64,000 bases of DNA from positions 586-64,585 of the forward strand of contig JBBSXB010000007.1 in the NCBI GenBank assembly GCA_038046005.1. The letters run 5' to 3'. This stretch comes from Nanobdellota archaeon. Lineage in GTDB: Archaea; Nanobdellota; Nanobdellia; Pacearchaeales; GW2011-AR1. The position numbers and the translations under genes are program-made. The notes beneath the pieces were generated by a model. It was not told where the DNA came from. It did no database searches and saw only the letters and a program-made list of their open reading frames with translations. Below, in pieces: positions 11,939 to 42,038 of the stretch (positions within the stretch are counted from its first letter, which is position 1; each line of letters starts with the position of its first letter).

Positions 11939-12108
11939 TCTCAAAACCTACGGTTTTGCATCCCTCAAGCGACTTCCTTTTGAGAACCTCTGCGGGTTCC
12001 TCACACCTCCCGCACGTTATGCCTCCGAGGGAAGTCTATGCAAACTGAAATCAAAACCTGTGGTTTTATACAAAAAATCAAACTTTTAGAAATATTTAAA
12101 TATAGCTG

Positions 12109-12327
12109 TTGTGTTTTTTTAACATGGTGAGATCAAGAAGTAGGAATGGCTTGTTTATACTCTTTTTAATATTTGGATTGTATTTTTTGAATTATGGATT
12201 TAGCTTTATTGCCCTACCAAAAGGAATGGATGTTGTTAATAAATGGATAATCGCTGCAGGCGGAGTTTTGATTCTTTTAGGTGGTATTAATTATCTTAGG
12301 GCAAGTAGATACACTGTGAGATACTAA
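12109..12327 (+). CDS. small membrane protein
   Basis: 72-aa ORF with two TM helices, upstream of the giant-protein module. Confidence 0.45.
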   Translation: MCFFNMVRSRSRNGLFILFLIFGLYFLNYGFSFIALPKGMDVVNKWIIAAGGVLILLGGINYLRASRYTVRY

Positions 12328-12371: not shown

Positions 12372-14270
12372 ATGTTTGTAAAAAGAGGTAATAGATTAGG
12401 AAACTCACGACCTGACCTAGAGATTAATAAAATTTTGCCCAGGTCAAATCGTTCGCAGGTCACGATTTTCATTATTGTTGCAATACTTATAGTTGCATCT
12501 GTTGTGCTTTTTTTTGTATTTAAGAATAATGCTGCAAAACAAGAACCAATTACTGTTTCTGTTGATCCCGCTTATACTACTTTTTTAAGCTGTGTTGAAG
12601 ATCAAGCTTCTAATGGCATTAAAGTTTTAGAAAGTCAAGGAGGTTATATCAATCCTCCAGAATTTGAGCCTGGTTCAAGGTATATGCCATTTTCTAATCA
12701 ACTGGATTTTTTAGGAAATCCAATTCCTTATTGGTATTATGTCTCTGCAAACAACATACAGAAAGAACAAGTTCCTTCAAAAAGTGAGATGGAAACTCAA
12801 ATAGCCAAATTTGTCGAGGGAAAAGCTAGAGACTGCGATTTTTCTTCTTATACTGCGCAAGGATATGAGATTACTCAAGGAGACCCTAAAGCTTCTGTCA
12901 GCATAAAAAATAATGAAGTAGATATTGACTTGAGCATGGATTTAGCGATAAACAAAACAGGCAGTAGTTCTTTCTTTAAGAATCATGCAATAGTCGTGAA
13001 GTCTAATCTTGGGGAACTTTACAATTCTGCGCTATCAGTCTATAACAAAGAACAGAGCGAGATGTTTTTGGAAAATTATAGCATAGACAATTTAAGACTT
13101 TATGCTCCAGTTGATGGTGTTGATCTTTTGTGTTCCCCTTTAACATGGAATGCAGACAAAGTTTTCGATGATCTGCAAAATGGAATACAGGCAAATACCT
13201 TGGCCATAAATGTAAAAAATGATAATTATTTTAAACCCAAATTTCAGAATGTTCCAGCTGATGTTCAAGTCAAGTTTCTTAATTCTAGAAATTGGACTTA
13301 CAGCTTCGAGGTAAATCCAAGTGATGGGCCTCTGATGATGGCTAGCCCTGTGGGAAATCAACCTGGCTTTGGAATTTTAGGATTTTGTTATGTTCCTTAC
13401 CATTTTGTTTATGATTTAAGATATCCTGTTTTAATTCAAGTTCAAAAAGGAGATGAAATTTTCCAATTCCCTGTTGCAATCGTGATTCTTGGAAACAAGC
13501 CAAGACAGCCGTTGAATGGTGAATCTGCAAATCTTGTGGCTTCTGATTTGTGCGCCAACAGCAATACAAAAACACAATTCAGCGTTCATGACAGCAGCCT
13601 TAAGAAGATAGACGCCGAAATTTTTTATGAGTGTTTAGGTGCCAGATGTGATCTTGGAAAAACTTCTAACGGAGCCTTAGAAAAAGAATTGCCTCAATGT
13701 GTAAACGGAATTGTAATAGCCAAGGCTGATGGATATAAAGATTCAAGAGAGATTTACACCAGTGTTGATGAAGGGCAAGTTCAGCTGATTATGAACAAAG
13801 TTTATCAAAAAAATGTGGATCTTAGAGTGGATGGAAAATCTTATCTTGGAAGTGCGATAATTTATTTTATTTCTGGAAATGATACCAAGACAGTTATTTA
13901 TCCTGAACAAAAATCAGTTGAAGTTGGAGAGGGCCAATATGAAATTCAAGTTTATATTTATCAAAATTCTTCCTTGAAAATAGATTCTAATGTGACAACT
14001 CAATGTGTAAGTGTTCCTCGTGGCGGAGTTTTGGGAATTGTTGGATTTACCCAGAAAAAATGTTTCGATGTAGAAATTCCTTCTCAGATAATTTCTAATG
14101 CTCTAGCTGGGGGCGGTAAACAACCCTATTACATTCTACAAGGAGAGCTGGAAAATTCTCAGTTTATTGAAATTAATGCTGGTAGTTTGGCAACTCCGAA
14201 AACAATTGACGAGTTGCAAAATAATTATATTTTATTTGACACTAAAGGTTTGGATGTGAATTTTAAATGA
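12372..14270 (+). CDS. membrane-anchored extracellular protein, unknown family
   Basis: 632 aa with an N-terminal anchor VTIFIIVAILIVASVVLFFVF and a large extracytoplasmic part. Its stop overlaps the next start (ATGA at 14267-14270). Confidence 0.7.
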   Translation: MFVKRGNRLGNSRPDLEINKILPRSNRSQVTIFIIVAILIVASVVLFFVFKNNAAKQEPITVSVDPAYTTFLSCVEDQASNGIKVLESQGGYINPPEFEPGSRYMPFSNQLDFLGNPIPYWYYVSANNIQKEQVPSKSEMETQIAKFVEGKARDCDFSSYTAQGYEITQGDPKASVSIKNNEVDIDLSMDLAINKTGSSSFFKNHAIVVKSNLGELYNSALSVYNKEQSEMFLENYSIDNLRLYAPVDGVDLLCSPLTWNADKVFDDLQNGIQANTLAINVKNDNYFKPKFQNVPADVQVKFLNSRNWTYSFEVNPSDGPLMMASPVGNQPGFGILGFCYVPYHFVYDLRYPVLIQVQKGDEIFQFPVAIVILGNKPRQPLNGESANLVASDLCANSNTKTQFSVHDSSLKKIDAEIFYECLGARCDLGKTSNGALEKELPQCVNGIVIAKADGYKDSREIYTSVDEGQVQLIMNKVYQKNVDLRVDGKSYLGSAIIYFISGNDTKTVIYPEQKSVEVGEGQYEIQVYIYQNSSLKIDSNVTTQCVSVPRGGVLGIVGFTQKKCFDVEIPSQIISNALAGGGKQPYYILQGELENSQFIEINAGSLATPKTIDELQNNYILFDTKGLDVNFK

Positions 14271-17200
14271 GAGAAAAAAACTTTTTAATATTCAGCGTGG
14301 TTTTGTTAGCACTTGCCCTGACAAGTCTCGTTTCTGCTGAATATATGAAATCTGGAGTTCAATATGCAACTCAGGGTGCTATAAGTGGTTTTTTTGGGGG
14401 AGGAACAGCCCCTACAAATTATAATGCTTGTCAGGCTGGCCAGGATTTTATTGTGCAAGTTTCTCCAATCGGTTGCACTCCTGTTCCTGTCAGGAGTGAT
14501 TTGTTACAAGACCAAAATAGTGCGGTTTTCTGTCCTTTGATGGCAACAAAAGTCAATCCTATGGTTAGTGTGAATGCGATAGACAGCATTCAATTTAGGT
14601 TGGACAAAGGATCAGATTATATAACTGGAGTTGACTTTTTGCCGGCTAAGGCTGCTTTGGGGATTAATAATCAATTAAACTCTCCAACTTTACAAAATAT
14701 TGGATATGCTGTTATAGTTTTAAAACAACAAAAAAATTCTTCAAAAATGCCTGATTATGTGAATGGAAGTTTAATTGCAACTATAAGGTATAACATAGAC
14801 AGCGCTTTTGGAGTTGGTGCCACGAGTTTTTATCTTCCAATAATTGCTGATGCCGACTGGAAAAATCAAAGAACAAAATATTCTTTCTTAAACGGGAAAT
14901 TTTATCTTAAAGCAGAAGGGATTGATTCCAGCGGGGCCCAGATTTCAATTTATGACGATACAAGAAGAATTTCAACTTCCAATTTGAATAATGGGCAAAA
15001 ATCTGGAACAATTTCCCTTCCAGGATTTGACTGTTATGGTGGACTTCAACTGAGTCTTAACGGACTTAGTGTTCCTGACACGAGAGCTAGCTTAGATGTT
15101 AATGGGCAGATTTATGAAGCTGCAATAGGAGAAAAGTTTTTTGACAATAAATGTACAGTCAGAGATTTAGGCAAATATGGAGTTTATGAAAGTGCAAGCA
15201 TTAATTGCAATGCTGATAAAAGAGGAGAGAGTTTTGTTTTAACAAAATCTCCTAAAGTTAAACTGGATTTTCCTGGAGCTAAAGAGGATGGTTATAAAGT
15301 TGGTGATTATCTATTCAATTACACAGATAACGGAAAACTAGATAATGGAAAATTAAAAGGAGTTTATTTAGGATTTGTTGGAAGCGTTAATGATTCTAAA
15401 AAAGAGAGTGACCTTTTTGCTATGGTTGTCGAAGTTCCTCAAGTAAAAGAAAAATTAACAAGTGATGAGATTGCAAAAGTTGCCAGATTTGCTGAGTCTT
15501 ATGAACCGCAAAAAGATTTAGTCAGTACTGGAGATTATATGCTCCAACATGGAAAAAGTATTTTTGGGTTTGTAACTGCAGCTATTGACTGGACTGTGGA
15601 AGGAAAAAGTTACCATTATATTAATCCTGCTAAGTCAGATACTATCAATGGTGTAACAGTTTCTTTAATTGGATTTGCAGGAGCAAAAGATTTTGACCTT
15701 TCAACCTTAAACCAAAATATCCAGGATTATTACACAAAAGCAAATGAGGATTATGACAAAATACTTGGAAGTTATTTGAATGAACAAAATGAAAACGGAA
15801 TTAGCTATGGCGAGGCAGCTTTATACAACAAAATGGCTTTGGTAAACAGCTTGAGCCAGAAAAGAACTTTGATTGACCTTTGCGAGCAGTTTAAAGAGAA
15901 TTACCCACAATCACAAAAAAACATAGATTTTTGTGAAAAAGATAAATTAGCAGACAGCGAATTATCCAGTTATTATATCTTGGTTAATGGAAAATTAAAA
16001 CAAATTTCTTTGGATAATGTTTATTCTCCTAAATTTGAGGATTATGGTGCAGAGATACTAATAAATGGAGAAAAATATGATTTCAAGAAAGATGAAGTTA
16101 AGTATTTGGAAGCTGGGCAAACTTCTACTGGAACTTTAGACAAGACTCAATTTACCACTGCTGTAAAAAATACTTTTGGAGCACAATGTTCACAATATGC
16201 TAGTGATGTTTTCGATATTGCAAATAAGTATAGCGTTGATCCTTCAAGATTAATTTCTGTTATGAAAAAAGAGTCCAGCTGCAACGCTGACACTGCAGAT
16301 TCAAGTGCTGGTGCTGTTGGATTGATGCAAATTTCCAGCTGGGATTTGTGCAAAAGTGCGCTAAAAATAAGCAGCTTAGGTGATTTAAGAGGAAAAAATA
16401 ATGTTAACAAAAATATTGAATGTGGAGCAATAATATTGAGTTCTTATTACCAGACTTATGGACAGACTTCGTCTGTATCTTTATATCAAAACAGAGTTAA
16501 ACGATATTGCCAAGATACAAATTATCAAACTAAATATTTGGAGTATCAAAGTTGGGATGCAGCATTAAGAGCTTACAACGGACTTGGGTGTACCCCTCCT
16601 GGTGCTGATGTGAATTATGTTGATGGTGTCAACCAAAATTACAACAACTTAAAGAGCGCAACACCAACTCTTGCAACAACTTCTGGTACTTCTGGAGCAA
16701 AATATGTCAAGCTTGCCGGAATTGGAGAAGATTATGTGGATGTTAGTATCTCTGGATTTTTTGGCACAAAAAGAATCACAAAAGGAGTTGTTGAAGATTT
16801 TGGAACAGGATATACATTTAATCTTCAATCAATCAATTTAAAGAAACTTGCTAAAGTAACTATTAATCCTCAAATACAAAATGCCGGTACTAGTGCAGTT
16901 GTTCCATTCAAGATTGGAATTGAGCAGAGTTTGATAAAATTGTCCCCTGAAAAAACTAAAGAGCAAATAGACAAAGTGAATAATTTAATTTCCAAGTGGC
17001 AGAGTGCTACAAACAAACTTGGAAATGTTGTGCAAGGAATGAATAAAGCATGTTTGGCGACTGGTGGGCTTTTGACTTTGAAGAATTTTCTAAGCGGCGA
17101 AGCGCTTGCAAGAAGCGCTGTCATGAGAAGTTCTGGAGGTTGGTATGAGAAATGCCAGGATTTAGTAAATCAACCTCAGTCTAAATATAAAAATGTTGAT

Positions 17201-20200
17201 GTATGCTTATCTCAAAATGCCGATGCAATAGGCAAAGACGTTAAATCTTATGATGATGCTATAAATAAACAAAATACTGAGATTAAAAAATTAGAAGAAC
17301 CTTATACAAAGACTGGAATTTTAGGGGCCAGAACAATTAATGATGATGATTTCTTAAAAGCTTATTTGGATAATGCTAAGCCAGAGATTACAAAGTGCTT
17401 AAATGACAGATATCCTAATGGAATAGACAATCATGGAAAAATAATCCAAGTTAAAGATTTCATGGCTTCTTTAAACAGCAACACAATATCTATTGGCGAA
17501 GTTAGAAACTTACAACTTAACTGCAGACTTGATGGTGGTTTGTTGGATGGAATGTCTAATAGTGTTTTGAAAAAAAGTGTTATTGATGTTAATACTAATT
17601 CTCAAGTTGTTAAAACAATTGGAGATGCTGAGAGTAGGTTTGGGGTTAAAGCAGATTATGGTGCTTCAAGAAAACTAACAGAAGTTTTAGTAAAAGAAGA
17701 CCAAACACTTTCTCAGATAACAGGAATTAATCCTATTCCATATACTCTTCAACCAGACCAGCTTGCAAGAATATATGTTGATGAAGCAACAAGCAAAACA
17801 TACCTTATTACATTGACTAAAGACTATGTTGTTGATCAAACATATGAAGTTGATAGCTTTGGGAATTTGCAGATGTCACAGGAAAAAAATCCTTTGTCTT
17901 TGAAATTTAAAAAATATGATTCATCAACTTATGCCCATCCTTACAAAAATCCTCAAGTGAGATATTTCGAGACAGATCCTTACAAAGGAATGCCCGCAAT
18001 TGTTCCATTTGATATTGAAAAAGGATGGTATGTTTCTGTTAAACAAACTCTGCCTGTTTTAGGGGGCATTAGAGCTTATGATGAATCCGGAAGAGTGAAT
18101 AGTTTCAATATCTGCAATGTTGGAGAAAATAACTTAGAAGAAAATATGGGTGGAGATGATAAATGCGAATTGATAAATCAAGGAACAGGGCAGCCTTATG
18201 GTCAGGTTTTTGGATTAATAGATTCTGATGCTAAAGTTCTTATTGATAAAGCTGTTGACGCCGTTAGCCAGGCAACCAGAGGTTATGGGGAACCAAAAGT
18301 AAGAATCGGAAAGAATACCTTTGATGTTGGCGAGCCAATGGTTGATATCCCCGATATAAAATGCCAAGACATAATGTCTCCAAGCGATTGCAAAATTTTA
18401 TTTAATGTCTGCGACCCTGTTGTTTGTCCTTCATCAAGGTGCGATTTGGGAGGAAATTATCCTGTAAAAGATGTAATTCAGTCTGGAATTTCTGGAAGCA
18501 TTGCGCTTTGCGCACCAAACTTTGTCGGATTTGGCGGAGATGTTTACATTCCAGTTTGTTTGAGCGGAGTTTATGCTGGAATGGATGGATGGCTTCAAAT
18601 CCAAAAAGCTTATAGAGATTGTCTTCAAAATAGTTTGACTACAGGTCAGCTTACTGGAATTTGCGATGAGATTTACAGCTTGCATAGCTGTGAATTTTTC
18701 TGGAGGCAAGGGCTTCCTATTGCAAAGTATTTGGCTCCTAAAGTAATAGAAACAATTGCAGGACAGAGTGTCAAAGGTGGGGGAGAATATTTAAGTATAA
18801 AGAGTGCATTCGATAATGCTGGAAAGTCTGTTGATTACTTCACGCAATATTATGCTAAAAATTCATTTGCGGCATTCAAAGCAAGAAGCGCTGAACAAGT
18901 TGGAACAGCTGCCTGCAAGAATTTTATATCTATAGCTTATCCAAGCCTGAGCGGTTTTGTCAATGCTTTGACACAGCCAAATTCACCTGCTCAATTTAGC
19001 GGAAGATTTGACGAGATTCCTTACACAACTGCCACAAATCCTCCTCTATCTCAATACAAAGTTTCGTACTTTATTTATGCAGGAAATATAAGGGGAGCTT
19101 ATTATCAGGTTTATTTAAAAGAGGGGGCTGAGAGCTCCTATTACCAAGATGCAGGCAATAGAAGAGTTGTTGCTGATGGCTATCTTGGGGCTGGAGAGAG
19201 AGTTGACCAGACTCCTGACTTTGTAGCACCTTCTGGATATAAACAACTTTGCATAAGAGTCAATGAACAGGAAACTTGCGGATTCAAGCAAGTCTCGACG
19301 GAGTTTGGCGTCAACTATGTGAAAGATTTGTACATGGCACAGCAGGCCAACAATACAAATATTCAGGGAACTAAAGAATGCATATCTGGAAGTCCAAGTT
19401 TGTACTCAGTTTTGAGCCCAAGTGTCGAGGGGGCTGCAAACGAAATTGCAAATCCTGCAATATACAATAGAGGAATCATAAGGATTTGCGCGACAGAAAA
19501 TCCTGGAAGCGGAAGTGATCCTAATTATGGGATAGCTAATAAACAAAGATGGCGTGAGGTTGGAAAATGTGATGACAATATGAAATGCTGGCTCGATTCG
19601 AAAAGTGTTTCAGATGTTATTGATGTAAAAAATATAAGAGAAGGTGTTTTGAATAATACTGCTGCAAATGAATTGGAAAAGTTGATGAATGAGAATGGTT
19701 ATATTAGTGATATAGATTATACAAATCTTATTAACACATTAAGCAAGACAAATGATCCTAATGAGAGAATAAAAGCTGTTGATGGAAATTTACCAAAGGT
19801 CTTTTTGAGCAATAAAAAAGCTGCATTGAACCTGATTAGAGGAGATGCTTATGCCGAGTTGGCGAAAGGATTGTTCTTAATTCCAAAACCTGTGAGCGAT
19901 AATTCTGGAATTGATTTGAGCGGAACGATGGATAATAACCCGCAGGCATCAACATCTCAAGATGAAGATGTTTACAAACAGGAATTAAATGCAATTTCAG
20001 ATGATGCTTTAGAAGATATCAATCGTGAGCTAATTGGAGAGGGTATAGATACAAGTGGTTTGTCTCAAGAAGAAATAATTCAAAAGTATGAAGAAATAAT
20101 TCCTAAACTGACTGGAGGATACATCGACTTTACATTGGAAGAGGGAGGTTTGTCAAATCCAACTACCTCTTATTCTCTTGTAAATGGCCAGTGGAGTTTT

Positions 20201-21943
20201 TCGCTTGGAAGGACTATTTTTTTAGGAAGAACTGACTGGAAAAGTTATTTTGGAGATTATAAATTTAAAGAAGCAAATTTAAACAAACTTATTGGGTATG
20301 AAATTGGAACTTCATTCATGGTTGTTGATCTTAGGAACAAAGATTATGATGGGGCTGTGAAAATATTCTTAGACACTGTAAATTTTGAGAATGGTGCTGA
20401 TGGAACAGCATGTATCTTTGATCAACTTAGGTGTGCAAAATTATCTACTGATGGCGTTGAATTTGGTTTTGGAAATGTTTTTAGATTTAAAGGTGAAATT
20501 GGTAATAAACCTCTTTATTTGAAATTTGTTGAATCTCCCCCTAGCCTGAATGTTGGAAAATGGTATTGGTCCAATGATGGAACAACATATTATCCATTTG
20601 TTATCATTGGTGATAATGGGGCTGCTGCTGTTTCTGGGCCTGGAGATTGGAGTTATTATAAACTTTGGATAATGGATTCTAATTTGTATCTTTTAGCTGG
20701 AGAGAACAAAGACTTTTATGAGGTGGCAAAAATAATTTTCAATTTTAATAGAAAATTAAAATACGACTTTGTTCAGAACAGGCAAATTGAAACACTCAAG
20801 CCTAGTGAGGCTAAACCTGTAATAAGAGAAGATAATATTATAACTTTAGGATTTTCTGACACTTTGAAAAAAGCAGCAGATGCTAAAATAATTAATTCTA
20901 AATGTGCTGATTTTGCTGCTAACATTCTTCAGTCTTCAAAAAATAATAACATTCCTGATCCTTTGCTTTTAGTTGCACTAATGCAAATAGAATCTGGTTG
21001 TGATAAAACAGCCAGTTCGGAAGGAAAGACCTTTAAAAAAGCAGATGGAACAAAATATGTTCTTACTTTTGAACTTGGGGCCTCTTATGGGCTTTTTGAA
21101 ATTAGTGGTAGAACTTGGTGTGGCCAGTTTGGATTACCTCAAGATAGGGTTTCGTGCGTAAAAATGTTATTAGAAACTCCTCCGAAAAATATTGATGTTG
21201 GTGCGGCTATATTAAGCAAGTACTATGGGCAGTATAAAAATGGTGTTACATACAGTAAGTGCAACAGGAAAGTGAAATATTATGAATGGGATGCGGCGCT
21301 AAGAGCTTATAATGGATTTGGGTGTTACAAAGGTGCAGAATATTATGTCGAGAATGTCATGAAGATCTATAACAAGCTCGGGAAGATTGCTGAAGGGAAG
21401 AGTGCTTTAGCCACCAACGAAAAAAAAAATGACGAATTGACTGTGGCAACACTTTCTAAAAATCAATGCGTACAAGCCTTTGATAATTTAAACGATGTTA
21501 GATTTAGTTATGGAAGAAAAAAATTAATTTGGGATGAAAGAGCATATAATCTTGCTTTAGCTAAAAGTAATGATATGTATGAAAGGAATTATTATGATCA
21601 TATCACTCCAGATGGAAAATATTTTTTTATTGATCTGAAGTCTAAATATGGATTTGTCCAAACCGAATATCTTGCTGAAAATATAGCAGCTGCAAGTGTT
21701 TATTCTAATGGTACCTTTGTGCCAGACATGACCTGCAATAAAGCGGTAGATGAGTTTTTGAATAGTCGTGCACATCGTTATTTTCTTCTTTATGTTAATG
21801 CCCCTGCTGGGGCGATAGGTTGTAACAATTATTTTTGCACGTTTTATACTGTTAATCCTGAAGGTTTTGCGACAGGGACAGTTACTTCAGCACAATCAAA
21901 AGAATTCTGGCAAAACGCTCCTTTACAACCTAGGGAAATTTAA
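14267..21943 (+). CDS. giant secreted protein (2,558 aa) with two lytic transglycosylase (SLT) domains and a C-terminal CAP/SCP domain
   Basis: Signal peptide LLALALTSLVSAEY. SLT-like block 1 is at ~16170-16650 (VMKKESSCNAD, GLMQIS, ALRAYNGLGC). SLT-like block 2 is at ~20890-21385 (LMQIESGCDK, GLFEISG, ALRAYNGFGC). A CAP/YkwD-like block is at ~21460-21870 (YYDHITPDG, LAENIA, LNSRAHRYF). Confidence 0.85.
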   Translation: MREKNFLIFSVVLLALALTSLVSAEYMKSGVQYATQGAISGFFGGGTAPTNYNACQAGQDFIVQVSPIGCTPVPVRSDLLQDQNSAVFCPLMATKVNPMVSVNAIDSIQFRLDKGSDYITGVDFLPAKAALGINNQLNSPTLQNIGYAVIVLKQQKNSSKMPDYVNGSLIATIRYNIDSAFGVGATSFYLPIIADADWKNQRTKYSFLNGKFYLKAEGIDSSGAQISIYDDTRRISTSNLNNGQKSGTISLPGFDCYGGLQLSLNGLSVPDTRASLDVNGQIYEAAIGEKFFDNKCTVRDLGKYGVYESASINCNADKRGESFVLTKSPKVKLDFPGAKEDGYKVGDYLFNYTDNGKLDNGKLKGVYLGFVGSVNDSKKESDLFAMVVEVPQVKEKLTSDEIAKVARFAESYEPQKDLVSTGDYMLQHGKSIFGFVTAAIDWTVEGKSYHYINPAKSDTINGVTVSLIGFAGAKDFDLSTLNQNIQDYYTKANEDYDKILGSYLNEQNENGISYGEAALYNKMALVNSLSQKRTLIDLCEQFKENYPQSQKNIDFCEKDKLADSELSSYYILVNGKLKQISLDNVYSPKFEDYGAEILINGEKYDFKKDEVKYLEAGQTSTGTLDKTQFTTAVKNTFGAQCSQYASDVFDIANKYSVDPSRLISVMKKESSCNADTADSSAGAVGLMQISSWDLCKSALKISSLGDLRGKNNVNKNIECGAIILSSYYQTYGQTSSVSLYQNRVKRYCQDTNYQTKYLEYQSWDAALRAYNGLGCTPPGADVNYVDGVNQNYNNLKSATPTLATTSGTSGAKYVKLAGIGEDYVDVSISGFFGTKRITKGVVEDFGTGYTFNLQSINLKKLAKVTINPQIQNAGTSAVVPFKIGIEQSLIKLSPEKTKEQIDKVNNLISKWQSATNKLGNVVQGMNKACLATGGLLTLKNFLSGEALARSAVMRSSGGWYEKCQDLVNQPQSKYKNVDVCLSQNADAIGKDVKSYDDAINKQNTEIKKLEEPYTKTGILGARTINDDDFLKAYLDNAKPEITKCLNDRYPNGIDNHGKIIQVKDFMASLNSNTISIGEVRNLQLNCRLDGGLLDGMSNSVLKKSVIDVNTNSQVVKTIGDAESRFGVKADYGASRKLTEVLVKEDQTLSQITGINPIPYTLQPDQLARIYVDEATSKTYLITLTKDYVVDQTYEVDSFGNLQMSQEKNPLSLKFKKYDSSTYAHPYKNPQVRYFETDPYKGMPAIVPFDIEKGWYVSVKQTLPVLGGIRAYDESGRVNSFNICNVGENNLEENMGGDDKCELINQGTGQPYGQVFGLIDSDAKVLIDKAVDAVSQATRGYGEPKVRIGKNTFDVGEPMVDIPDIKCQDIMSPSDCKILFNVCDPVVCPSSRCDLGGNYPVKDVIQSGISGSIALCAPNFVGFGGDVYIPVCLSGVYAGMDGWLQIQKAYRDCLQNSLTTGQLTGICDEIYSLHSCEFFWRQGLPIAKYLAPKVIETIAGQSVKGGGEYLSIKSAFDNAGKSVDYFTQYYAKNSFAAFKARSAEQVGTAACKNFISIAYPSLSGFVNALTQPNSPAQFSGRFDEIPYTTATNPPLSQYKVSYFIYAGNIRGAYYQVYLKEGAESSYYQDAGNRRVVADGYLGAGERVDQTPDFVAPSGYKQLCIRVNEQETCGFKQVSTEFGVNYVKDLYMAQQANNTNIQGTKECISGSPSLYSVLSPSVEGAANEIANPAIYNRGIIRICATENPGSGSDPNYGIANKQRWREVGKCDDNMKCWLDSKSVSDVIDVKNIREGVLNNTAANELEKLMNENGYISDIDYTNLINTLSKTNDPNERIKAVDGNLPKVFLSNKKAALNLIRGDAYAELAKGLFLIPKPVSDNSGIDLSGTMDNNPQASTSQDEDVYKQELNAISDDALEDINRELIGEGIDTSGLSQEEIIQKYEEIIPKLTGGYIDFTLEEGGLSNPTTSYSLVNGQWSFSLGRTIFLGRTDWKSYFGDYKFKEANLNKLIGYEIGTSFMVVDLRNKDYDGAVKIFLDTVNFENGADGTACIFDQLRCAKLSTDGVEFGFGNVFRFKGEIGNKPLYLKFVESPPSLNVGKWYWSNDGTTYYPFVIIGDNGAAAVSGPGDWSYYKLWIMDSNLYLLAGENKDFYEVAKIIFNFNRKLKYDFVQNRQIETLKPSEAKPVIREDNIITLGFSDTLKKAADAKIINSKCADFAANILQSSKNNNIPDPLLLVALMQIESGCDKTASSEGKTFKKADGTKYVLTFELGASYGLFEISGRTWCGQFGLPQDRVSCVKMLLETPPKNIDVGAAILSKYYGQYKNGVTYSKCNRKVKYYEWDAALRAYNGFGCYKGAEYYVENVMKIYNKLGKIAEGKSALATNEKKNDELTVATLSKNQCVQAFDNLNDVRFSYGRKKLIWDERAYNLALAKSNDMYERNYYDHITPDGKYFFIDLKSKYGFVQTEYLAENIAAASVYSNGTFVPDMTCNKAVDEFLNSRAHRYFLLYVNAPAGAIGCNNYFCTFYTVNPEGFATGTVTSAQSKEFWQNAPLQPREI

Positions 21944-21967
21944 CTTAACGTTTTCTAAACCTTTTTA

Positions 21968-22051
21968 TGGGGGAGACAGGATTCGAACCTGCGCAGACAC
22001 TAAGTCAGTAGGTCCTAAGCCTACCCCATTTGACCGCTCTGGCACTCCCCC
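21968..22051 (-). tRNA. tRNA-Leu (anticodon TAG), class II with long variable arm
   Basis: The reverse complement has acceptor GGGGGAG/CTCCCCC, D-stem CCA/TGG, anticodon stem GTAGG/CCTAC with loop CTTAGGA, variable arm TGACTTAGTGTCTGC, and T-arm GCAGG-TTCGAAT-CCTGT. 84 nt. Confidence 0.9.
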
Positions 22052-22709
22052 AATCTAGATTATCCATGTAATTTGATTTAAAAACTATTCCATAATATTC
22101 TTTGTTGTATTTTTTGTAAATCCATTTATCCTTTAATACTGGTATTTTTACACTTGAAAATAAATCTATTAAACCTAACCATAGCTCTTTGCTTGATGTA
22201 GATAATCCATAGCCTCTTTTTCTCTTTCCACCTTCTGTTGCCATTATTCCACTTAAAAACGCAATCCGCACATTTTTTTTTGATTTGGCTATATAATTTG
22301 GGATTTTTACTATGTTGCTTTTTTTCCCTATAGGTATTTGAAATACTTTATTAAATAAACTGTAAATTGATTTGTTATCAAGATTAATGTAATAAGTTTG
22401 CTTTCTGTTTTCCCTTATCTTTCTCAAATTTATACTAATGTCTTTATCAAAGAGTTTTTTGCATAATTTTACTATGTAAATAATTAATTCTTTATTTGAA
22501 AGTTCGATTGAAATTCTATACTTGGATTTATTTAAATGGCCATCTCCAATTATCACTCCTACTAAAAATGATAAATCTTCATCAAGTATTAATGGAATCT
22601 TAACAGGATTAGACAACCCAAACTTAGCTTTTGTGATTATTTCATTTTTGTTTTTTGAGATAATATTCAAACTATTTTGACTGTCAATAACTTCTTTTTG
22701 ATAAGACAT
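22005..22709 (-). CDS. LAGLIDADG homing endonuclease-like protein (double motif)
   Basis: Two LAGLIDADG-type motifs, LVGVIIGDGHL and FLSGIMATEGG, spaced ~100 aa apart. The last ~15 codons are encoded by the 5' half of tRNA-Leu. Confidence 0.8.
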   Translation of the reverse strand: MSYQKEVIDSQNSLNIISKNKNEIITKAKFGLSNPVKIPLILDEDLSFLVGVIIGDGHLNKSKYRISIELSNKELIIYIVKLCKKLFDKDISINLRKIRENRKQTYYINLDNKSIYSLFNKVFQIPIGKKSNIVKIPNYIAKSKKNVRIAFLSGIMATEGGKRKRGYGLSTSSKELWLGLIDLFSSVKIPVLKDKWIYKKYNKEYYGIVFKSNYMDNLDWGSARAVKWGRLRTY

Positions 22710-32344: not shown

Positions 32345-33711
32345 ATGAAAAGAAATTTGTTTTTTGGATTGTTGTTTTTATTTATAGTTATGATGGTTGT
32401 TTCTGCAAAGCCTTCTTCAGGAGTTTGTCCAATTCAACAGGACACAAATGTTGTTTTTTATGGTCAAACAGGGTTTGGAGGTGTAGGCGACTTAAGTAGG
32501 TCATGGATTCTCATTTTTTGGATTGGTGGAAACAGCAAGATCTTTCTGTTAAATATGCAATTCTTGATGCAAACGACATTAAGAGTGATTGCAATCTTGT
32601 TAATTATCCAAACGTCAAGGTTTACATACAGCCGGGAGGAAATGCTTACTACCAACAAAAACAGCTCGGCTCTGTTGGAAAAACTAACATAAATAATTAT
32701 ATCAATTCTGGAAGAGGATATGTTGGAATTTGCGCTGGGTTTTATTATGCTGCAGGAGACTATTATTGGCAAGGCAGTTACTACAACTGGCCTAATTTGC
32801 TTAATAAATATCCTACAGTTGAAGGTTCAATAACAAACATAGCTGACTATGATTCAAGTTCCGGATATGCTTTAACTACTTTAAGCAACGGGGAACAAAT
32901 GATTTACTATGGGGGCCCAACTCGTGGTTGGAGACAAACTCCTAGCAGTTTTCCTGGACAAGCTTTAATGTCTTTCGCAAGTATTTCTAACAACTTACCA
33001 GCTTCTATAGAATACAACAACATGCTTTTGATGAGCGTACATGCAGAGGCTTATGAAAATGACGGGATTTATGGACTTACAACAAATCAGAGAGTAAGGA
33101 ATTATATTTGGTTCGCAAATGCAATCAATAATGTTTCAGGAACAAGCTTTTATGTTCCTGTTTTGCCTAGTTCTGCTGTTTGCGGGAATGGGATTTGCGA
33201 AGCGGGAGAGGATAGTTATTCATGTCCTGCAGATTGTTATGTAAGCTCAGGAAATGTGACAAACATTTTTTATGATGATTTTGAATCTGGATTGGGCAAC
33301 TGGGCAACAACTGCTGTTTCTGGAGGAAATTCTTGGAACATTGCTACAACAGATCCTTATCAGGGAAGCTATGCAGAGTCAAATCCAATGTCTACAACAG
33401 ATCCTGCTTCAATATTAGAGAAGGGGATTTCGACTGTTGGCTATGGAAACATAAAAGTCAGCTATTATAGGAAGCTTGTCGGATTAGACATAGCTGATGA
33501 ATTCCAAGCTAAGTGGTTTGACGGCGTAAATTGGAATATTTTAGAGCAAACTGGAAGCAATTCTGCCGACGATGTAAGCTATTTGTATAAAGAGTTTAAT
33601 ATTCTAGCAATGGCTTACAACAACTCTAACTTTAAGATAAGATTCGAGTGTACAGCCGGCGCTGTTTCAGAATTCTGCAGAGTTGATAATGTCTTGGTTT
33701 CAGGACAATAA
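32345..33711 (+). pseudogene. secreted GATase1/BPL_N-like protein with a C-terminal DxFESG jelly-roll-like module, interrupted by a 1-nt frameshift at a T6 run
   Basis: SD AGGAGGTGA is followed by an ATG at 32345 and a signal peptide in one frame (ORF 32273-32692). The rest is in another frame (ORF 32503-33711). Adding one T to the run at 32514-32519 joins them as ...SRSWILIFLDWWKQQ.... The PGG...GICAG motif resembles class I amidotransferase / biotin-ligase N-terminal domains. Confidence 0.6.
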
Positions 33712-33790: not shown

Positions 33791-34027
33791 ATGGTGAAAA
33801 GTAGATTAAAAAGTACTGTAAAAAGTGCGATTAATCGTGCTATAATTAAGGAGGCCATAATAAAGACAATTGTGGGTTCAGAAAAACCACTTTCTACAGA
33901 AGAAATAGCAAAAAATCTATCTAAATCTTGGCATACCATTATTCGTTATTGTTTGGATTTAACAAACGAAGACAAACTCGTTAAGTTTGAAATTGGGAGG
34001 ATAAGTGTCTGGCAAATTAAAAAATGA
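33791..34027 (+). CDS. small winged-helix DNA-binding protein
   Basis: I chose the ATG at 33791 because it is ~25 nt after TTTAAATAC. PLSTEEIAKNLSKSWHTIIRYCLDL...KLVKFEIGRISVW is an HTH plus wing pattern. Its stop overlaps the next start (ATGA). Confidence 0.55.
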   Translation: MVKSRLKSTVKSAINRAIIKEAIIKTIVGSEKPLSTEEIAKNLSKSWHTIIRYCLDLTNEDKLVKFEIGRISVWQIKK

Positions 34028-37000
34028 AAAAAATAGCGATTAAGAATGAAAAGCAATTTGCAACTTGGTTTAAAAAGAACTTTAAAAAAATTGGTTACTC
34101 AAAAATTATTAGAGGAGACATTTCAAAATGTCCAGATTTTGTTATGTTAAAAAATGGAAAAGAGGTGAGGGTTGAATTGGAAACTACTTCTTCCAATTTC
34201 ATTGCCCATAAACACTCTTATGACGATGTTGATGAGATTGTTTGTTTAGTTAAAGATGTTAAATTAGATAAGCCGGTGATAGTTGTTGATGAATTAAAAT
34301 ATGAAGGAAAAATGAAAGTTACACTAAGCATAGATAGTAAGACATATTCCGAATTCCAAAAATATTGTGAAGATCATGCCATAATGCTTTTTAAAAAGAT
34401 TGAGCTGGCAATCAAAGATATTATGAAAAAAAAGAGGGTCTTGATGTTTTTTTTGTTTTCTTTTATTTTAATTTTTTCTTTGCAAGGAATTCTTGGCGAC
34501 CAAATATTCTTTGATGGATTTGAATCTGGGGGAGTGGCCAATTGGACTTTATGGAGCAATGCTGGGGCAAACACAAACTGGACTGCTTCTTCGGTAGATC
34601 CTGCTTCTGGATTATTCCATGCTAATGGGAATCCAAGGACAACGAATGATCCTGGAATAGTGATGAATCGAAGCATGAGCACTTTAGGATATCAAAATAT
34701 CACTCTTAATTATTCCAGAAAACTTAACATTGGAACAGCTCTTAAGACATTCAGAGTCAGATGGTATAATGGTAGCACTTGGGCCATTTTGGAAAATGCA
34801 AATAACACTGTGGATTCCGTTTATCTAAATAAGAGTTTTGTTTTTCCGTCTTCTGCTAGCAATAATTCAAATTTTAAAATAAGTTTTGAGTGCACAGAAG
34901 GCACAACGACTGATTTTTGCAGGGTCGATAATGTGAACATAACTGGAAACAGCATCGCTTCAAATACTGCTCTAGGAGTAACAATAAATTCGCCTACAAA
35001 TTTGACTTTTAATGCATCAACTTTGAATCTGAATGTTAGCGTCACTGGCTCAAATATAAGCAGTGTCTGGATTTCTTTAGATGGTGGGCAAAATATTACT
35101 TATGCGCATAGAAATGGCACAATAGACTTTGGATATCTTGACTTAACTTTTGTTGACGATTTTGATTCTTATTCTGAAGGAAGCAACGCCAGCCCAGTGT
35201 GGGATGTCAAGCCCTGGTTTCAAACAGCAATAATAGAGAATAGGACTTACAAACTTTATAACGAGACTGCATTAATTGATGCATTGGCTTCTATAAACGG
35301 TTTTAGTCAGCTGGATTATTGGGCTTCTGCAAAGGTTAGGGTTCCAAGCGGCTCAAATGGAAGTGCTTATCTGACTCCGAGATTTGGCGATGTAAATAAC
35401 AAGTATGAGATCGCTCTGGATTATGATTTCAGCTCTATCAATATAAATAAAGCCGTGAATGGAAATTGGTCTAGTCTGGCTGCTTTGTGGACAGGGAATT
35501 TACCAACGCCTGTTTTTGTTAGCAAGAACGAGTGGCATTTACTTGGCTCTAGGGTGAAAGGGAACAATATTTCTGCTTATGTCGATGGGCAATTAGCATT
35601 GAACGTTACAGATTCAGATTTGAACAATGCAACTTTTTCAGGATTTTCTTTGATAGCTCTGGATGACGTGGCCCTTCACACGGCTTATTTTGACGATTTA
35701 GAAATTCATAAGGAACTAACTTATGGTTCGCATACTTTAACTGTTTATGTAAACAACACTAATGGAGAAATTAATTCAAGTGCTGTGACTTTCTTTATAA
35801 ACACTAGTAGTCAAATCCCATTTTTCTCTAATTATTCTGAGAGTCCCTCTAATAATTCTAATTATTCTCAAGGGCAGTTTTATGAATTTAATGTTACAAT
35901 AACCAGCACTAATGTTTCTGCTGTGAAAATAAACTTTAATGGGACTAACTATACGGCTATATACTCAATGGGAAGCAGTGTCTACTCTTTTAACAGATCT
36001 GATTTAGCTGCTGGCACTTACACTTATTATTGGTGGGCCAACGACAGTTTTGGAAATACAAATACAAGCTCTAGCAGAGATTATGCTGTGACAAAGGCAT
36101 CAACAACAACCAATATCATTGCGGTTCCTAGTTCTCCTATAATCTATGGAACGCAAAGTAATTTCTCATGTTCCAACTCTGCCGGGCTTTCAACAACCTT
36201 ATACATTGATGGAACAGATAAATCAAGCGAAAAAAACATTAATTTAACGAGAGCTGCAGGCAGTTACATTGTCAATTGCACTTCTGTCACCAACCAAAAT
36301 TATTCTGCAAGTTCTCAACAGTCTGCCTATGTTATCAATAATGCCTCTGGCCAGGTCGGATTATCCCTCAATGGTGTTGCAGATAACTTAAGTTTAGTTT
36401 ACCCAAGTCAGATAAACGCTTCAGCTTTAACGCTTTACGGAGCGATAATCATTTATAGGAATGGCGTTGATGTTACTTCGCAAAACAACCAAAATGTAAG
36501 CCTGGGGGCCGATTATTATAATTATACTGCTGTAAGCTATGGAGATGCGAATCATAGTTCAGCCAGTTTAACTTATTGGGTTAATGTAACGCAAAACAGC
36601 TCTGAAATATTCTTATATCTAAATAATTCTAGATTAAATATCACTATTGCTCAAGGGAATACTATTTCCATAAATTCAACACTGCAACAAGGACAGGGAA
36701 ATATATTTGTTTATAATGGAGGAAGCTTGATTTACTGGGGAGATTCTCCATCATATAACTTTACAACTTTTTCATCTTTTGGGCTTTATAATGTAACTGC
36801 AATATACCAACAAACACAAAACTATACAGGTTCTTTTGAAACTTGGTTCGTAAATGTTACAGGAACTTCACAGAATTTGACAGCCACAACTCCTCAAATA
36901 AAATTGTTTTATCCAAGCTATGTCTCGACTTATGGAGATAATGCTGCAATTCCATTAAACTTTTCTGTTGCTGGGAATAACACGCTTTCTTGTTGGTATA

Positions 37001-41105: not shown

Positions 41106-42038
41106 TTATGCTACTGCAACACTCCAAGCACCATACGCAGATGACGAATATGATTGCTGGCTTATTGATGGGGGAAGCCCTTTAAGGCAGAAATAAATCT
41201 GTTCCTGCCCCGATGTCTCATTATTGTTATTTATAGAATTGTTCCCTTTGAATAATATAGACGAAGTGACATTTGTCGATGTTGCGTTAACCATTGCTGT
41301 TCCCGTACATCCTTGCGAGGTATTTTCAACTGTGAAATTTGCAGCATATATAAAGTCAGTAATTGTCGTTTCACCTCTAAGGTTGTATGATGTAACGTTG
41401 ACACTTAGCGCATTTGCATTACCTGTATTGTTAACGATGATTGGATCATTATTTGAACCAACATCTGTGTCGGTAGATGAAAGTGTCTGCCATGTCATTG
41501 CTGTTGGAGACATTGCCATTGCCGTAAGCAAATTGTAGGTGAAAGTTGGTGTTGAATTTGTAGCGTACCCTCCATTTTTATCAGTTATTGTTGTGTTGAC
41601 TGTCCATGCACCATTCACATCATAATAGTACATGTTTATAGTGCATGTAAAATTAATATTATTTCCTACACCAACAGAAAGATTTATGCAAGAAGTATTT
41701 GATCTTGTGGTTTCGCTTGCTTTCTGAAAATAGGCTGTTGCGGTGCTCGTGTTAATGTTCGAAGCTCCGTCAGTGTCTGTTGCGGTGAAATTAAAAGTTA
41801 TTGACTTTGTTGTTGATTCTGTCGGGTTTTGTGCAGAGATTGCATTAACTATTGGGATTGTTGGGGCTGAATTTCCCAAAGTAATGTTTAGTGTTGTGGT
41901 GCTGCTTGTTGCAAATCCAGTTATCTCTGCTACTTTGTTAAAAAAGTTAGTATGATTTAAAACCAATATTAAGAATATCAGCAGAACAGCTCCAGCAATA
42001 AAATACACTCCTCCTTTACCCATCAAGGTTTTAGTCAT
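41106..42038 (-). CDS. truncated paralog (310 aa) of the C-terminal extracellular part of the 1,501-aa surface protein
   Basis: It has its own N-terminal anchor (VYFIAGAVLLIFLILVL). From APTIPIVNAISAQ onward it is homologous to the upstream large gene, including 422 nt of perfect identity. Confidence 0.7.
   Translation of the reverse strand: MTKTLMGKGGVYFIAGAVLLIFLILVLNHTNFFNKVAEITGFATSSTTTLNITLGNSAPTIPIVNAISAQNPTESTTKSITFNFTATDTDGASNINTSTATAYFQKASETTRSNTSCINLSVGVGNNINFTCTINMYYYDVNGAWTVNTTITDKNGGYATNSTPTFTYNLLTAMAMSPTAMTWQTLSSTDTDVGSNNDPIIVNNTGNANALSVNVTSYNLRGETTITDFIYAANFTVENTSQGCTGTAMVNATSTNVTSSILFKGNNSINNNNETSGQEQIYFCLKGLPPSISQQSYSSSAYGAWSVAVA
41124..41545. repeat. 422-bp perfect direct repeat, copy 1 (in the 310-aa gene)
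   Basis: Identical base for base, compared by eye, to 42645-43066 (offset 1,521 bp). The flanks are diverged and mosaic. Confidence 0.9.

Follow-up and report, generated by a model that had tools for sequence, protein, structure and literature searches.

The locus lies in a 64-kb stretch of DNA that was analysed as a whole (the window) and consists of three genes, all on the + strand. The smallest appears in the ORF list with a TTG start (12109–12327, 72 aa), the ATG at 12124 being the more likely start of a protein of ~67 aa (12124–12327) with two hydrophobic segments, both scored as transmembrane (TM) in a hydropathy scan. A TATA-like sequence, AAATATTTAAATATA, is located ahead of this ORF (12090–12104) and is a putative promoter element. 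The second gene (12372–14270), delineated by its ORF, hydropathy and homologs, encodes a protein of 632 aa, hereafter the partner, with a single-pass N-terminal anchor (one TM segment, aa 24–56). The third (14267–21943) encodes a secreted protein of 2,558 aa, hereafter the giant, whose start overlaps the stop of the partner in an ATGA read directly at 14267–14270. The only hydrophobic segment of the giant is N-terminal and signal-like (aa 3–29), and the signal peptide predicted there (aa 1–24, 14267–14338) would be cleaved at ...LTSLVSA/EY. The initial annotation had already reported the two long ORFs, the membrane anchoring of the first, the overlap and a signal peptide; the ORF boundaries proved exact to the base and the signal-like segment was recovered. 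It had also placed the DNA in an archaeal genome. This is supported by the presence of SRP54, FtsY, rpS3Ae and GINS51 in the window (the match to rpL44e is weak and below cutoff) and by the named homologs of the giant, which all come from Pace-, Woese- and Nanoarchaeota MAGs; the host genome is that of a DPANN archaeon.

Three domains of the giant could be named, and HMM searches recovered each of them where it had been proposed. SLT1, a GH23 lytic transglycosylase (aa 631–800, 16157–16666), sits in a slot between two conserved regions, Core-A and Core-B, and scores 49.4 bits against PF01464 (E=4e-13; gathering score 21.3). Its catalytic Glu is E669, in a KKES context (nt 16271–16273): the stretch MKKESS aligns on MQTESS of E. 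coli MltC (PDB 4c5f), Glu on Glu. SLT1 also matches PHROG transglycosylase and endolysin families. SLT2, a second and divergent GH23 domain located in the tail (aa 2196–2380, 20852–21406), scores 35.5 bits against the same profile (E=8e-9), and the whole giant matches it over two stretches with E=1.4e-20. SLT2 carries SYGLFEISGRTWC, is 31% identical to SLT1 over the catalytic region and weakly resembles GH22 and alpha-lactalbumin. Its E2242, in a MQIES context (nt 20990–20992), falls in register with E669 within one residue, as judged from the SLT1–SLT2 BLAST ranges; alignment and motif together point to E2242 as the probable catalytic Glu. Motifs of the lysozyme-like fold are found at aa 685 (GLMQI), aa 2275 (GLFEI) and aa 766 and 2344 (ALRAYNG). 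All of these had been read correctly from the letters, KKES at ~16271, QIES at ~20990, GLMQI/GLFEI and ALRAYNG(L/F)GC standing at the positions originally given. Compared with the nearest relative, L003, the computed dN/dS is ~0.15 for SLT1 and ~0.14 for SLT2 with dS near saturation, which suggests that both domains are maintained by purifying selection. Gene-wide, no signal of positive selection was detected against this relative (dN/dS ~0.15–0.19), in a comparison of low power with dS near saturation.

The third domain, CAP/SCP/YkwD-like (aa 2406–2521, 21482–21829), scores 27.6 bits against PF00188 as an isolated segment and 22.2 bits within the whole protein, for a gathering score of 21.1. 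Its score against the YkwD model TIGR02909 (30 bits, E=3.7e-7) is far below the cut-off of 171, so that the domain is not a YkwD equivalog; the segment matches an SCP-domain protein of the PDB (4ifa, E=5e-4). CAP is rare, being common to only 1–2 of 119 homologs, clearly so in P0003. A search of the giant for the murein-binding domains LysM, PG_binding and SH3b found none.

The initial annotation had noted about 1,900 residues that it could not name, and these indeed have no match in Pfam, NCBIfam, PHROG or the PDB sequences. Most of them belong to two regions that are present throughout the family. Core-A (aa 25–615, 14339–16111), which contains 8 mostly conserved Cys, is found in all 119 homologs compared, as well as in every related locus of sufficient length, and matches nothing in Pfam or PHROG. 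Core-B (aa 811–1870, 16697–19876), present in all homologs compared, is composed in order of a beta-sandwich, a long helical region, beta domains, a Cys-rich segment, a second beta-sandwich and a helical end, and is represented by 1,179 clusters at 50% identity among 1.84 billion representatives. A Cys-dense stretch, first placed at ~18350–18720, is confirmed at aa 1366–1475 (18362–18691), where ten Cys are arranged around the motif CQDxMSPxDCxxLFNVCDPVxCPSSRC...; 22 of the 24 Cys in aa 811–1870 are invariant or at least 90% conserved among 34 homologs. Core identity across the clade is 43–53%. The AF2 model of Core-B reaches a pLDDT of 65.8, with low confidence across the Cys-dense segment. 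Foldseek searches with this model returned nothing from the PDB at E<=1e-3 and one meaningless match from BFVD (E 8.8e-5, TM 0.07), and a family-profile search of PDB sequences was empty. A lead to a T4SS component, VirB5 (PF07996), at aa 898–1008 was dropped, since the score is non-significant (E=0.071), the region is helical and no T4SS genes lie nearby.

Beyond Core-B, the variable tail starts with a segment devoid of any known domain (aa 1871–2190, 19877–20836; no match in Pfam or PHROG). It includes one weak copy (aa 2059–2173, nt 20441–20785; 19 bits against the module HMM) of a recurrent tail module of ~95 aa that occurs in 61 of 120 giants. We considered this module as a murein-binding companion of SLT and rejected the idea, no association being found between the two (Fisher p=0.42).

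The partner shares with the giant a wealth of conserved Cys, ten of them invariant, and is built of the N-terminal anchor, a helical region and tandem beta-sandwich domains. Its homologs, at about 55% identity, number more than 2,284. Like the cores, it matched nothing in Pfam, NCBIfam, PHROG or the PDB sequences, the last being searched both with single sequences and with family profiles. With its AF2 model (pLDDT 65.9), Foldseek retrieved just generic Ig-like, pilin or SlaB-type structures, all with TM<0.3; the structural follow-up of the two proteins thus yielded models of both partner and Core-B and no specific fold match from which an assignment could be made. Gene order was more informative. 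In 78 of 78 loci that extend far enough, the partner is followed directly, on the same strand, by Core-A and Core-B, and homologs of the small membrane protein, with the motif GLYFxN..F.F..PE...WII..GG.L...G..NY.R, occur just upstream of the partner in 54 of 80. The proposal that the three proteins belong to one system is therefore borne out, and the pair formed by the partner and the giant is conserved in related genomes. Further upstream, related loci contain rpS3Ae (60/82) and an rpL44e-like gene (67/82); downstream of the giant lie, on the opposite strand, a convergent tRNA-Leu gene and a LAGLIDADG-like ORF. Because ribosomal-protein genes adjoin the locus in most relatives and the cores have no PHROG match, we discarded the idea that it derives from a phage or mobile element.

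While the core is found in all 119 homologs, the segments corresponding to aa 615–810 and to everything beyond aa 1870 vary. Homologs range in length from 1,774 to 3,120 aa and tails from 6 to 910 aa, some orthologs being effectively tail-less (6–26 aa). GH23-like domains are present in 24 of 55 complete orthologs (~44%) and absent, according to the family HMM, from the other 31; roughly 40% of orthologs have no recognisable hydrolase at all. No GH23-like domain was seen outside the giant ORF, or a frameshifted continuation of it, in 1.1 Mb of related loci. Orthologs without GH23 can carry other enzymes: Peptidase_M15_4 in two tails, Amidase_2, Glucosaminidase and SLT_2 in one each, and weak NlpC/P60 matches in four; VanY is found in one tail that also has GH23, and M23 occupies the slot of P0120. 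Six classes of murein hydrolase (GH23, GH73, amidase, M15, NlpC/P60 and M23) are thus encountered at the same positions. An SLT domain in the slot is seen in only 6 of 120 homologs and the SLT2 subtype in the tail in 18 of 120. The giant described here is alone among the 120 in having two GH23 domains, to which CAP is added; L003 independently shows the same layout of slot-SLT and tail-SLT, and P0003 independently shows a C-terminal CAP. PT-HINT, absent from our giant, is rare among orthologs (for example P0079). On the core tree, payload type is patchy.

The initial annotation had described the protein by its SLT and CAP modules. These do not define it: the family is defined by the ~1,650-aa Cys-rich core (aa 25–615 and 811–1870), on which SLT and CAP are optional accessory payloads. 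Given the 31 of 55 complete orthologs without GH23, the ~40% without hydrolase and the few that are tail-less, the primary role of the module cannot be murein cleavage. The hydrolase classes all have murein as their substrate and differ in the bonds that they cleave, which points to repeated recruitment against this polymer; judged from these sequence comparisons, the case for murein as the probable target of the payloads is strengthened by the occurrence of six classes at the same positions.

Large SLT proteins of this lineage have been described before. Castelle et al. (2021, PMC8204110) present 'fam00969', predicted extracellular proteins of up to 3,000 aa with SLT, restricted to Woesearchaeota and Pacearchaeota, and both this paper and Vigneron (2022, PMC9723730) propose binding or degradation of bacterial walls for large murein transglycosylases. 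They trace such proteins back to three DPANN genomes described before them (Rinke 2013; Castelle 2015); the AR20 protein in the second of these studies belongs with the same large proteins. For another system, the killing of bacteria by archaeal peptidoglycan hydrolases has been reported (PMC12352652). Our giant fits the description of fam00969 by its length of 2,558 aa, its signal peptide, its SLT domains and its Pace-, Woese- and Nanoarchaeota homologs (the named ones are annotated 'transglycosylase SLT domain-containing protein [Candidatus Pacearchaeota archaeon]'), and going by that description it is probably a member. Neither the occurrence of such an SLT giant in an archaeon nor its proposed action against bacterial walls is therefore new to the literature. 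The conserved core, the partners and the swappable payloads are poorly described so far: the published account characterises the family by its SLT domain, an optional payload here, and the family descriptions given in these papers mention neither the obligate partner nor the small membrane protein, and neither the further hydrolase classes nor the sequon depletion reported below.

We favour, as rather likely, the interpretation that the three genes form a surface module in which a scaffold core carries enzyme payloads that act on bacterial murein, for attachment, penetration or feeding. The trio would be a chromosomally fixed cell-surface module specific to DPANN archaea of the Woesearchaeota/Pacearchaeota type. 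The giant, which has no membrane anchor of its own, would be held at the surface by the translationally coupled partner, and its core would serve as a scaffold showing swappable enzymes at two permissive sites, the slot and the C-terminal tail; in the giant described here the payload would be the two GH23 lytic transglycosylases plus CAP. On meeting a bacterium, the GH23 domains would cut the MurNAc–GlcNAc strands of its murein, and the local opening of the sacculus could then allow attachment, penetration or feeding. The suggestion that the locus encodes a device aimed at another cell's wall, made at the outset, thus gains from the six hydrolase classes found at the same sites, while the function remains a deduction from sequence and the idea itself is not new.

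The same hydrolase domains would also fit nutrient scavenging without contact with any living host or prey, in which surface enzymes digest the murein of dead bacteria (necromass) and so provide a metabolically poor archaeon with amino sugars and amino acids. Glycosidases, amidases and peptidases together would be well suited to breaking the polymer down completely, and the peptidoglycan of dead cells has been proposed as an amino-acid source for Pacearchaeota (PMC11537232). Each giant, however, usually carries one or two hydrolase types and no full digestive set; the enzymes form part of a large protein with a conserved scaffold and an anchored partner, instead of being released in small, soluble form; and the locus has as neighbours ribosomal-protein and tRNA genes, with no adjacent genes for muropeptide uptake or catabolism. 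We regard scavenging as unlikely, if the most serious of the competitors. Another substrate than murein would be a chitin-like polymer, the wall polysaccharide of an archaeal host or, during growth or division, the cell's own envelope glycan. GH23 and lysozyme-like folds do include chitin-active enzymes, the giant has no murein-binding domain, and SLT2 is divergent with weak GH22-like features. Against this, Amidase_2, M15/VanY (D-Ala-D-Ala carboxypeptidase families), M23 and NlpC/P60, which occupy the same sites in relatives, are directed at murein, where they act on peptide stems and the amide bond, rather than at chitin, and pseudomurein, with its beta-1,3 links to N-acetyltalosaminuronic acid, resists lysozyme-type enzymes. 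A non-murein substrate seems to us very improbable.

The pair could also be part of a structural envelope, a two-component S-layer-like coat similar to SlaB/SlaA of Sulfolobales, with the enzymes decorating the lattice. Like SlaA and SlaB, the giant and the partner are a large secreted protein and a smaller, anchored, beta-sandwich-rich one; all relatives sampled have the two together at a constant position in the chromosome, and SlaB (8qox_B, E=8e-5) is one of many Ig-like proteins to which the partner model shows a weak resemblance. This likeness is generic, however (TM 0.13–0.17), and the anchor of the partner is N-terminal, at the end opposite to that of SlaB. N-glycosylation sequons, moreover, are depleted rather than enriched in the giants (ratio 0.39 in 40 of them; z=-3.7 for the one described here), which disfavours the S-layer reading, whereas strong enrichment (z=+11 and +6) is seen in two other large secreted ORFs of the window, the sequon-rich ORFs at 34024–38589 and 42048–46553, which resemble glycosylated surface-coat proteins far more than the giant does. 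Both giant and partner are also Cys-rich and strongly conserved, the core keeping its 43–53% identity across the clade; such conservation and Cys richness are unusual among S-layer proteins. A coat function seems to us improbable, less so than a different substrate. Finally, the 7.7-kb ORF might be artificial, whether as an assembly chimera or through the joining of genes that are really separate, a suspicion prompted only by its unusual length and by its mix of bacterial-type domains on a contig of archaeal origin. Exactly this product of 2,558 aa is encoded on 10 contigs from independent assemblies, so that the ORF is not a chimera; the giant aligns colinearly with P0002 (60% identity over 75%) and P0003 (38% over 84%, CAP included), L003 shares the two-SLT layout, and GC content is even along the gene. 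An artefact is next to impossible.

The favoured interpretation, a surface scaffold with anti-murein payloads, has parallels in known systems. Bacterial polymorphic toxins similarly combine a long conserved N-terminal body with shuffled, variable C-terminal enzymes; their payloads are likewise patchy, and PT-HINT, a domain of that class, is also present in some orthologs of the giant. Their Rhs, CdiA and LXG scaffolds, on the other hand, showed no sequence or fold relation to the giant, which differs further by a second, internal payload slot and by a single fixed locus beside ribosomal-protein genes in place of a mobile cassette array. Polymorphic toxins are also followed by an immunity gene, whereas none lies downstream of the giant; a producer that has no murein could dispense with one. 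VirB1, IagB, FlgJ-type enzymes and phage tail or virion lysins are comparable in that GH23 is tied to a large murein-crossing apparatus. SLT1 matches the PHROG families 'lytic tail protein' and 'internal virion protein with endolysin domain', below cut-offs and over the GH23 domain only, and its weak NCBIfam matches to IagB and to a flagellar lytic transglycosylase again cover GH23 only, all scores being far below cut-offs (IagB 14.8 versus 208, BB0259 20.6 versus 234, MltC 31.4 versus 375). Among the neighbours scanned in the window, no secretion-system, flagellar, pilus or phage genes were found. In contrast with these systems, the wall cut here would be that of another organism, the producer being an archaeon.

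Woesearchaeota and Pacearchaeota rank among the most widespread uncultured archaea, and in the literature retrieved no cultured representative or known host is reported for them. The locus offers a testable handle, namely a conserved surface module that carries bacterial-wall-specific enzymes as payloads. If the hydrolase domains cut murein, this would be direct molecular evidence of cross-domain attachment or predation by DPANN archaea, and a new type of cell–cell contact machinery might then be sought in the large, disulfide-rich core, for which no known fold was recognised, and in its obligate partner. More tentatively, and with less than even confidence, we consider that the trio may be a host-contact or penetration apparatus of its own fold, specific to Woese- and Pacearchaeal DPANN, whose hydrolase warheads mark the lineages that parasitise or prey on bacteria, not archaea; if this is true, the payload type of each genome could predict its kind of host.

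Three forward-strand genes make up the module: a small open reading frame (ORF) at 12109-12327 (72 aa counted from a TTG codon), an ORF of 632 aa at 12372-14270, hereafter the partner, and an ORF of 2,558 aa at 14267-21943, the giant. The small ORF more likely starts at the ATG at 12124 than at the TTG at 12109; a TATA-like element, AAATATTTAAATATA, lies 20-34 nt 5' of this ATG. The end of the partner ORF and the start of the giant ORF overlap in ATGA, as the initial annotation had described for this 632-aa and 7.7-kb pair. A hydropathy scan revealed two transmembrane (TM) segments in the small protein, one N-terminal TM segment in the partner and, as the sole hydrophobic segment of the giant, an N-terminal signal-type stretch, in agreement with the signal peptide previously claimed. 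The window (GC ~34%) encodes SRP54, FtsY, aminoacyl-tRNA synthetases, rpS3Ae and GINS51, with a weak rpL44e match below the cut-off, and all named homologs come from Pace-, Woese- or Nanoarchaeota MAGs; hence, the window is archaeal, of DPANN type. Ten contigs from independent assemblies, GCA_964356645.1 among them, encode an identical 2,558-aa protein. Thus, the ORF is not a chimera, a possibility raised at the outset, and an assembly artefact is excluded. Directly downstream of the giant gene and convergent with it, a LAGLIDADG homing-endonuclease-like ORF (22005-22709, reverse strand) overlaps the 5' part of a tRNA-Leu(TAG) gene (21967-22052, reverse strand), an arrangement repeated on the other contigs with the identical giant.

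Segments of the giant were run individually against Pfam. The two SLT domains and the CAP domain that had been proposed all exceed the cut-offs (21.3 bits for PF01464, 21.1 bits for PF00188): SLT1, a GH23 lytic-transglycosylase domain (aa 616-810; PF01464, 49.4 bits), SLT2, a second, divergent one (aa 2191-2395; PF01464, 35.5 bits), and CAP at the C terminus (aa 2396-2558; PF00188, 27.6 bits). The catalytic motifs lie exactly where predicted, with E669 at nucleotide 16271 and E2242 at 20990, and E669 aligns in register with the catalytic Glu context of MltC. SLT1 and SLT2 share 31% identity. Among 120 giants, that of the window is alone in having two GH23 domains, one of subtype 1 in the slot (the variable segment between two conserved cores) and one of subtype 2 in the tail (beyond aa ~1870); its CAP domain is common to just one or two homologs, clearly to the one labelled P0003. 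Within SLT2 (20852-21406), the segment SYGLFEISGRTWCGQFGLPQD has alpha-lactalbumin and C-type lysozyme as best PDB-sequence matches (E ~0.02) and looks by eye like the GH22 motif YGLFQIS..WC; we read this likeness as the common lysozyme-fold hairpin, not GH22 ancestry.

The recognisable domains are add-ons. In a comparison set of 119 homologs (1,774-3,120 aa), Core-A (aa 1-615) and Core-B (aa ~811-1870) are present in every member, and the inter-core segment and all that lies beyond aa ~1870 vary; therefore, the ~1,900 residues are the family-defining core, not filler. As had been noticed, they match nothing nameable: neither core has a match in Pfam, NCBIfam, PHROG or PDB sequences, family-profile PDB search included. 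The Core-B query retrieved 1,179 clusters at 50% identity in 1.84 billion representatives; for 940 clusters the match was at E<=1e-30. Both cores are rich in conserved Cys. Of the 24 in Core-B, 22 are either invariant or conserved to 90% or more, and ten conserved Cys packed in aa 1366-1475 account for the Cys-dense stretch already remarked upon. In the AF2 model of Core-B (pLDDT 65.8), beta-sandwiches are accompanied by a long helical stretch and by a Cys-rich helical part of low confidence, and Foldseek gave no meaningful match in PDB or BFVD.

Homologs of the partner number more than 2,284, at ~55% identity; it has ten invariant Cys and no Pfam domain. Its AF2 model (pLDDT 65.9) begins with a TM helix, followed by a helical part and then tandem beta-sandwiches, and Foldseek returned generic Ig-like relatives only (pilins, TIE, SlaB; TM<0.3). 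With a partner profile and one genome per species, we found loci in 230 genomes and fetched 80 loci. Core-A and Core-B follow the partner directly, on the same strand, in 78/78 loci reaching past it, and in 54/80 a two-TM protein of ~65 aa that bears a conserved motif is encoded 5' of the partner; the pair is conserved in related genomes, and the suggestion that the partner and the small protein share the giant's system holds. Genes for rpS3Ae (60/82 loci) and an rpL44e-like protein (67/82) lie 5' of the operon wherever coordinates were inspected. The locus is a fixed chromosomal site, not a mobile element. One contig binned as 'Bacillota bacterium' (L029, DATKUW010000047.1) carries the complete archaeal operon with archaeal rpS3Ae and rpL44e and is most likely misbinned.

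The nearest relative, L003, has diverged unevenly from the window, with 95-98% identity in ribosomal proteins, 70% in the partner and 59-63% in the cores; clade-wide median identities are 53% for the partner, 43% for Core-B and 62% for S3Ae. Computed dN/dS against L003 is ~0.15-0.19, and ~0.14-0.15 for both SLT domains, with dS near saturation and no gene-wide sign of positive selection; SLT1 and SLT2 both look maintained.

Payloads were sampled in 55 complete orthologs retrieved via the partner, a set unbiased regarding SLT, with tails as short as 6 aa and as long as 910 aa. A Pfam scan of 59 tail and slot segments picked up SLT in 12; a family-specific HMM detected lysozyme-like domains, with E-S, GxMQI and RxYNG motifs intact, in 24/55 orthologs, a count that includes a divergent subtype missed by Pfam. 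Among the 29 tails without GH23 are Peptidase_M15_4 (two), Amidase_2, Glucosaminidase and SLT_2 (one each), weak NlpC/P60 (four), PT-HINT and ankyrin repeats; VanY occurs alongside GH23 in one further tail, and an M23 peptidase occupies the internal slot of homolog P0120. Thus, one or more murein hydrolases are predicted in roughly 60% of orthologs; six catalytic classes are represented, which cut different bonds of one polymer, and payload type is patchy across the Core-B tree. About 40% of orthologs are without a recognisable hydrolase and a few without a tail, implying that the core has a function of its own. Throughout 1.1 Mb of related loci, all lysozyme-like domains lie within the giant ORF, save for an apparent frameshifted continuation in locus L080. 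There (17146-20452) the giant ORF stops early, with an 81-aa tail, and an overlapping ORF in another frame runs ~1,000 aa with GH23; the break probably reflects a frameshift or an error of sequencing, the alternative being a genuine split gene. A divergent GH23-like subtype (FECLVLQxAxxES ... GIMQIN ... ALRxYNGWNTxC ... LFPEC), mostly unseen by Pfam SLT, is common at ortholog C-termini (in related loci, for example L005:18234-18473, L029:16847-17125 and L069:15436-15756), and Pfam- or CAZy-based surveys probably undercount murein hydrolases in Woese-/Pacearchaeota-type archaea. A ~95-aa module, PIFEFxDG..YFKY...WKWSFDK..W....LIKSLEGKNYEEGLKIL, recurs in 61/120 giants (P0020, P0053, P0021 and others) in up to seven copies, both tail and slot being sites where it is seen, with a weak copy at 20441-20785 of the window, no Pfam match and no association with SLT presence (p=0.42).

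The architecture, conservation and domain identities of the module being established, we infer its tethering, substrate and purpose. In the best-supported reading, the partner, membrane-anchored and translationally coupled to the giant, would keep this anchor-less secreted protein at the cell surface, possibly helped by the two-TM protein; the conserved core would be a scaffold or contact apparatus, and the payloads would attack the murein of bacteria touched by the archaeon, the GH23 domains of the window organism cleaving glycan strands. The strongest new argument for murein as the target is that different murein-specific enzymes were repeatedly recruited to the same two sites, and the amidase and peptidase payloads of orthologs make action on a non-murein glycan unlikely. 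Scavenging of necromass, in which the hydrolases would digest the murein of dead bacteria, agrees with the enzymology but sits less easily with the fusion of the enzymes to a scaffold that is large and anchored, and with genomes that each have one or two enzyme types.

An S-layer-like coat made of partner and giant would suit the anchor-plus-giant pair and its presence in all sampled relatives; it is disfavoured by the shortage of N-glycosylation sequons in the giant family (40 giants, 6.5 observed against 16.6 expected), the window giant being itself depleted (z=-3.7). Two other large secreted ORFs of the window are strongly sequon-enriched and are better candidates than the giant for glycosylated surface-coat or adhesin proteins of this archaeon: 34024-38589 (forward strand, 1,521 aa; 83 observed against 32 expected, z=+11) and 42048-46553 (reverse strand, 1,501 aa; 58 against 29, z=+6). 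A 310-aa ORF (41106-42038, reverse strand) shares 86% identity with aa 1074-1326 of the adjoining 1,501-aa ORF, a ~339-nt stretch (41197-41535 and 42718-43056) having the same translation in both; a tandem duplication of part of the gene, a cassette or a repeat introduced by assembly could each account for it. Over its C-terminal ~150 aa, a 402-aa ORF (32503-33711, forward strand) shares 44% identity with aa 162-309 of the 1,521-aa protein downstream; the 1,501-aa ORF has a weaker copy, so that three ORFs share this domain.

The giant family and the murein-attack hypothesis were previously published. In the parts cited here, Castelle 2021 (PMC8204110) describes fam00969 as a Woese-/Pacearchaeota-specific family with proteins of up to 3,000 aa and cites earlier sightings in three genomes, and Vigneron 2022 (PMC9723730) refers to a "large lytic murein transglycosylase" and to predatory Woesearchaeota. 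These parts do not say that the three-gene operon is obligate, that the fold-less, Cys-rich core is what truly marks the family, that payloads of six hydrolase classes occupy two sites, or that sequons are avoided; supplements or other papers may carry any of these points. A 2025 PLoS Biology survey of archaeal peptidoglycan hydrolases demanded a known wall-binding domain and would therefore miss the giant scaffold family. The observation made on the giant in the initial annotation is confirmed; its interpretation, a device against another cell's murein, gains from the varied hydrolases at the same sites and has partial support, but it had been proposed before, and the function is inferred rather than demonstrated. 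More tentatively, and with the balance somewhat against it, the module may be a lineage-specific contact apparatus whose warheads would report the bacterial hosts.
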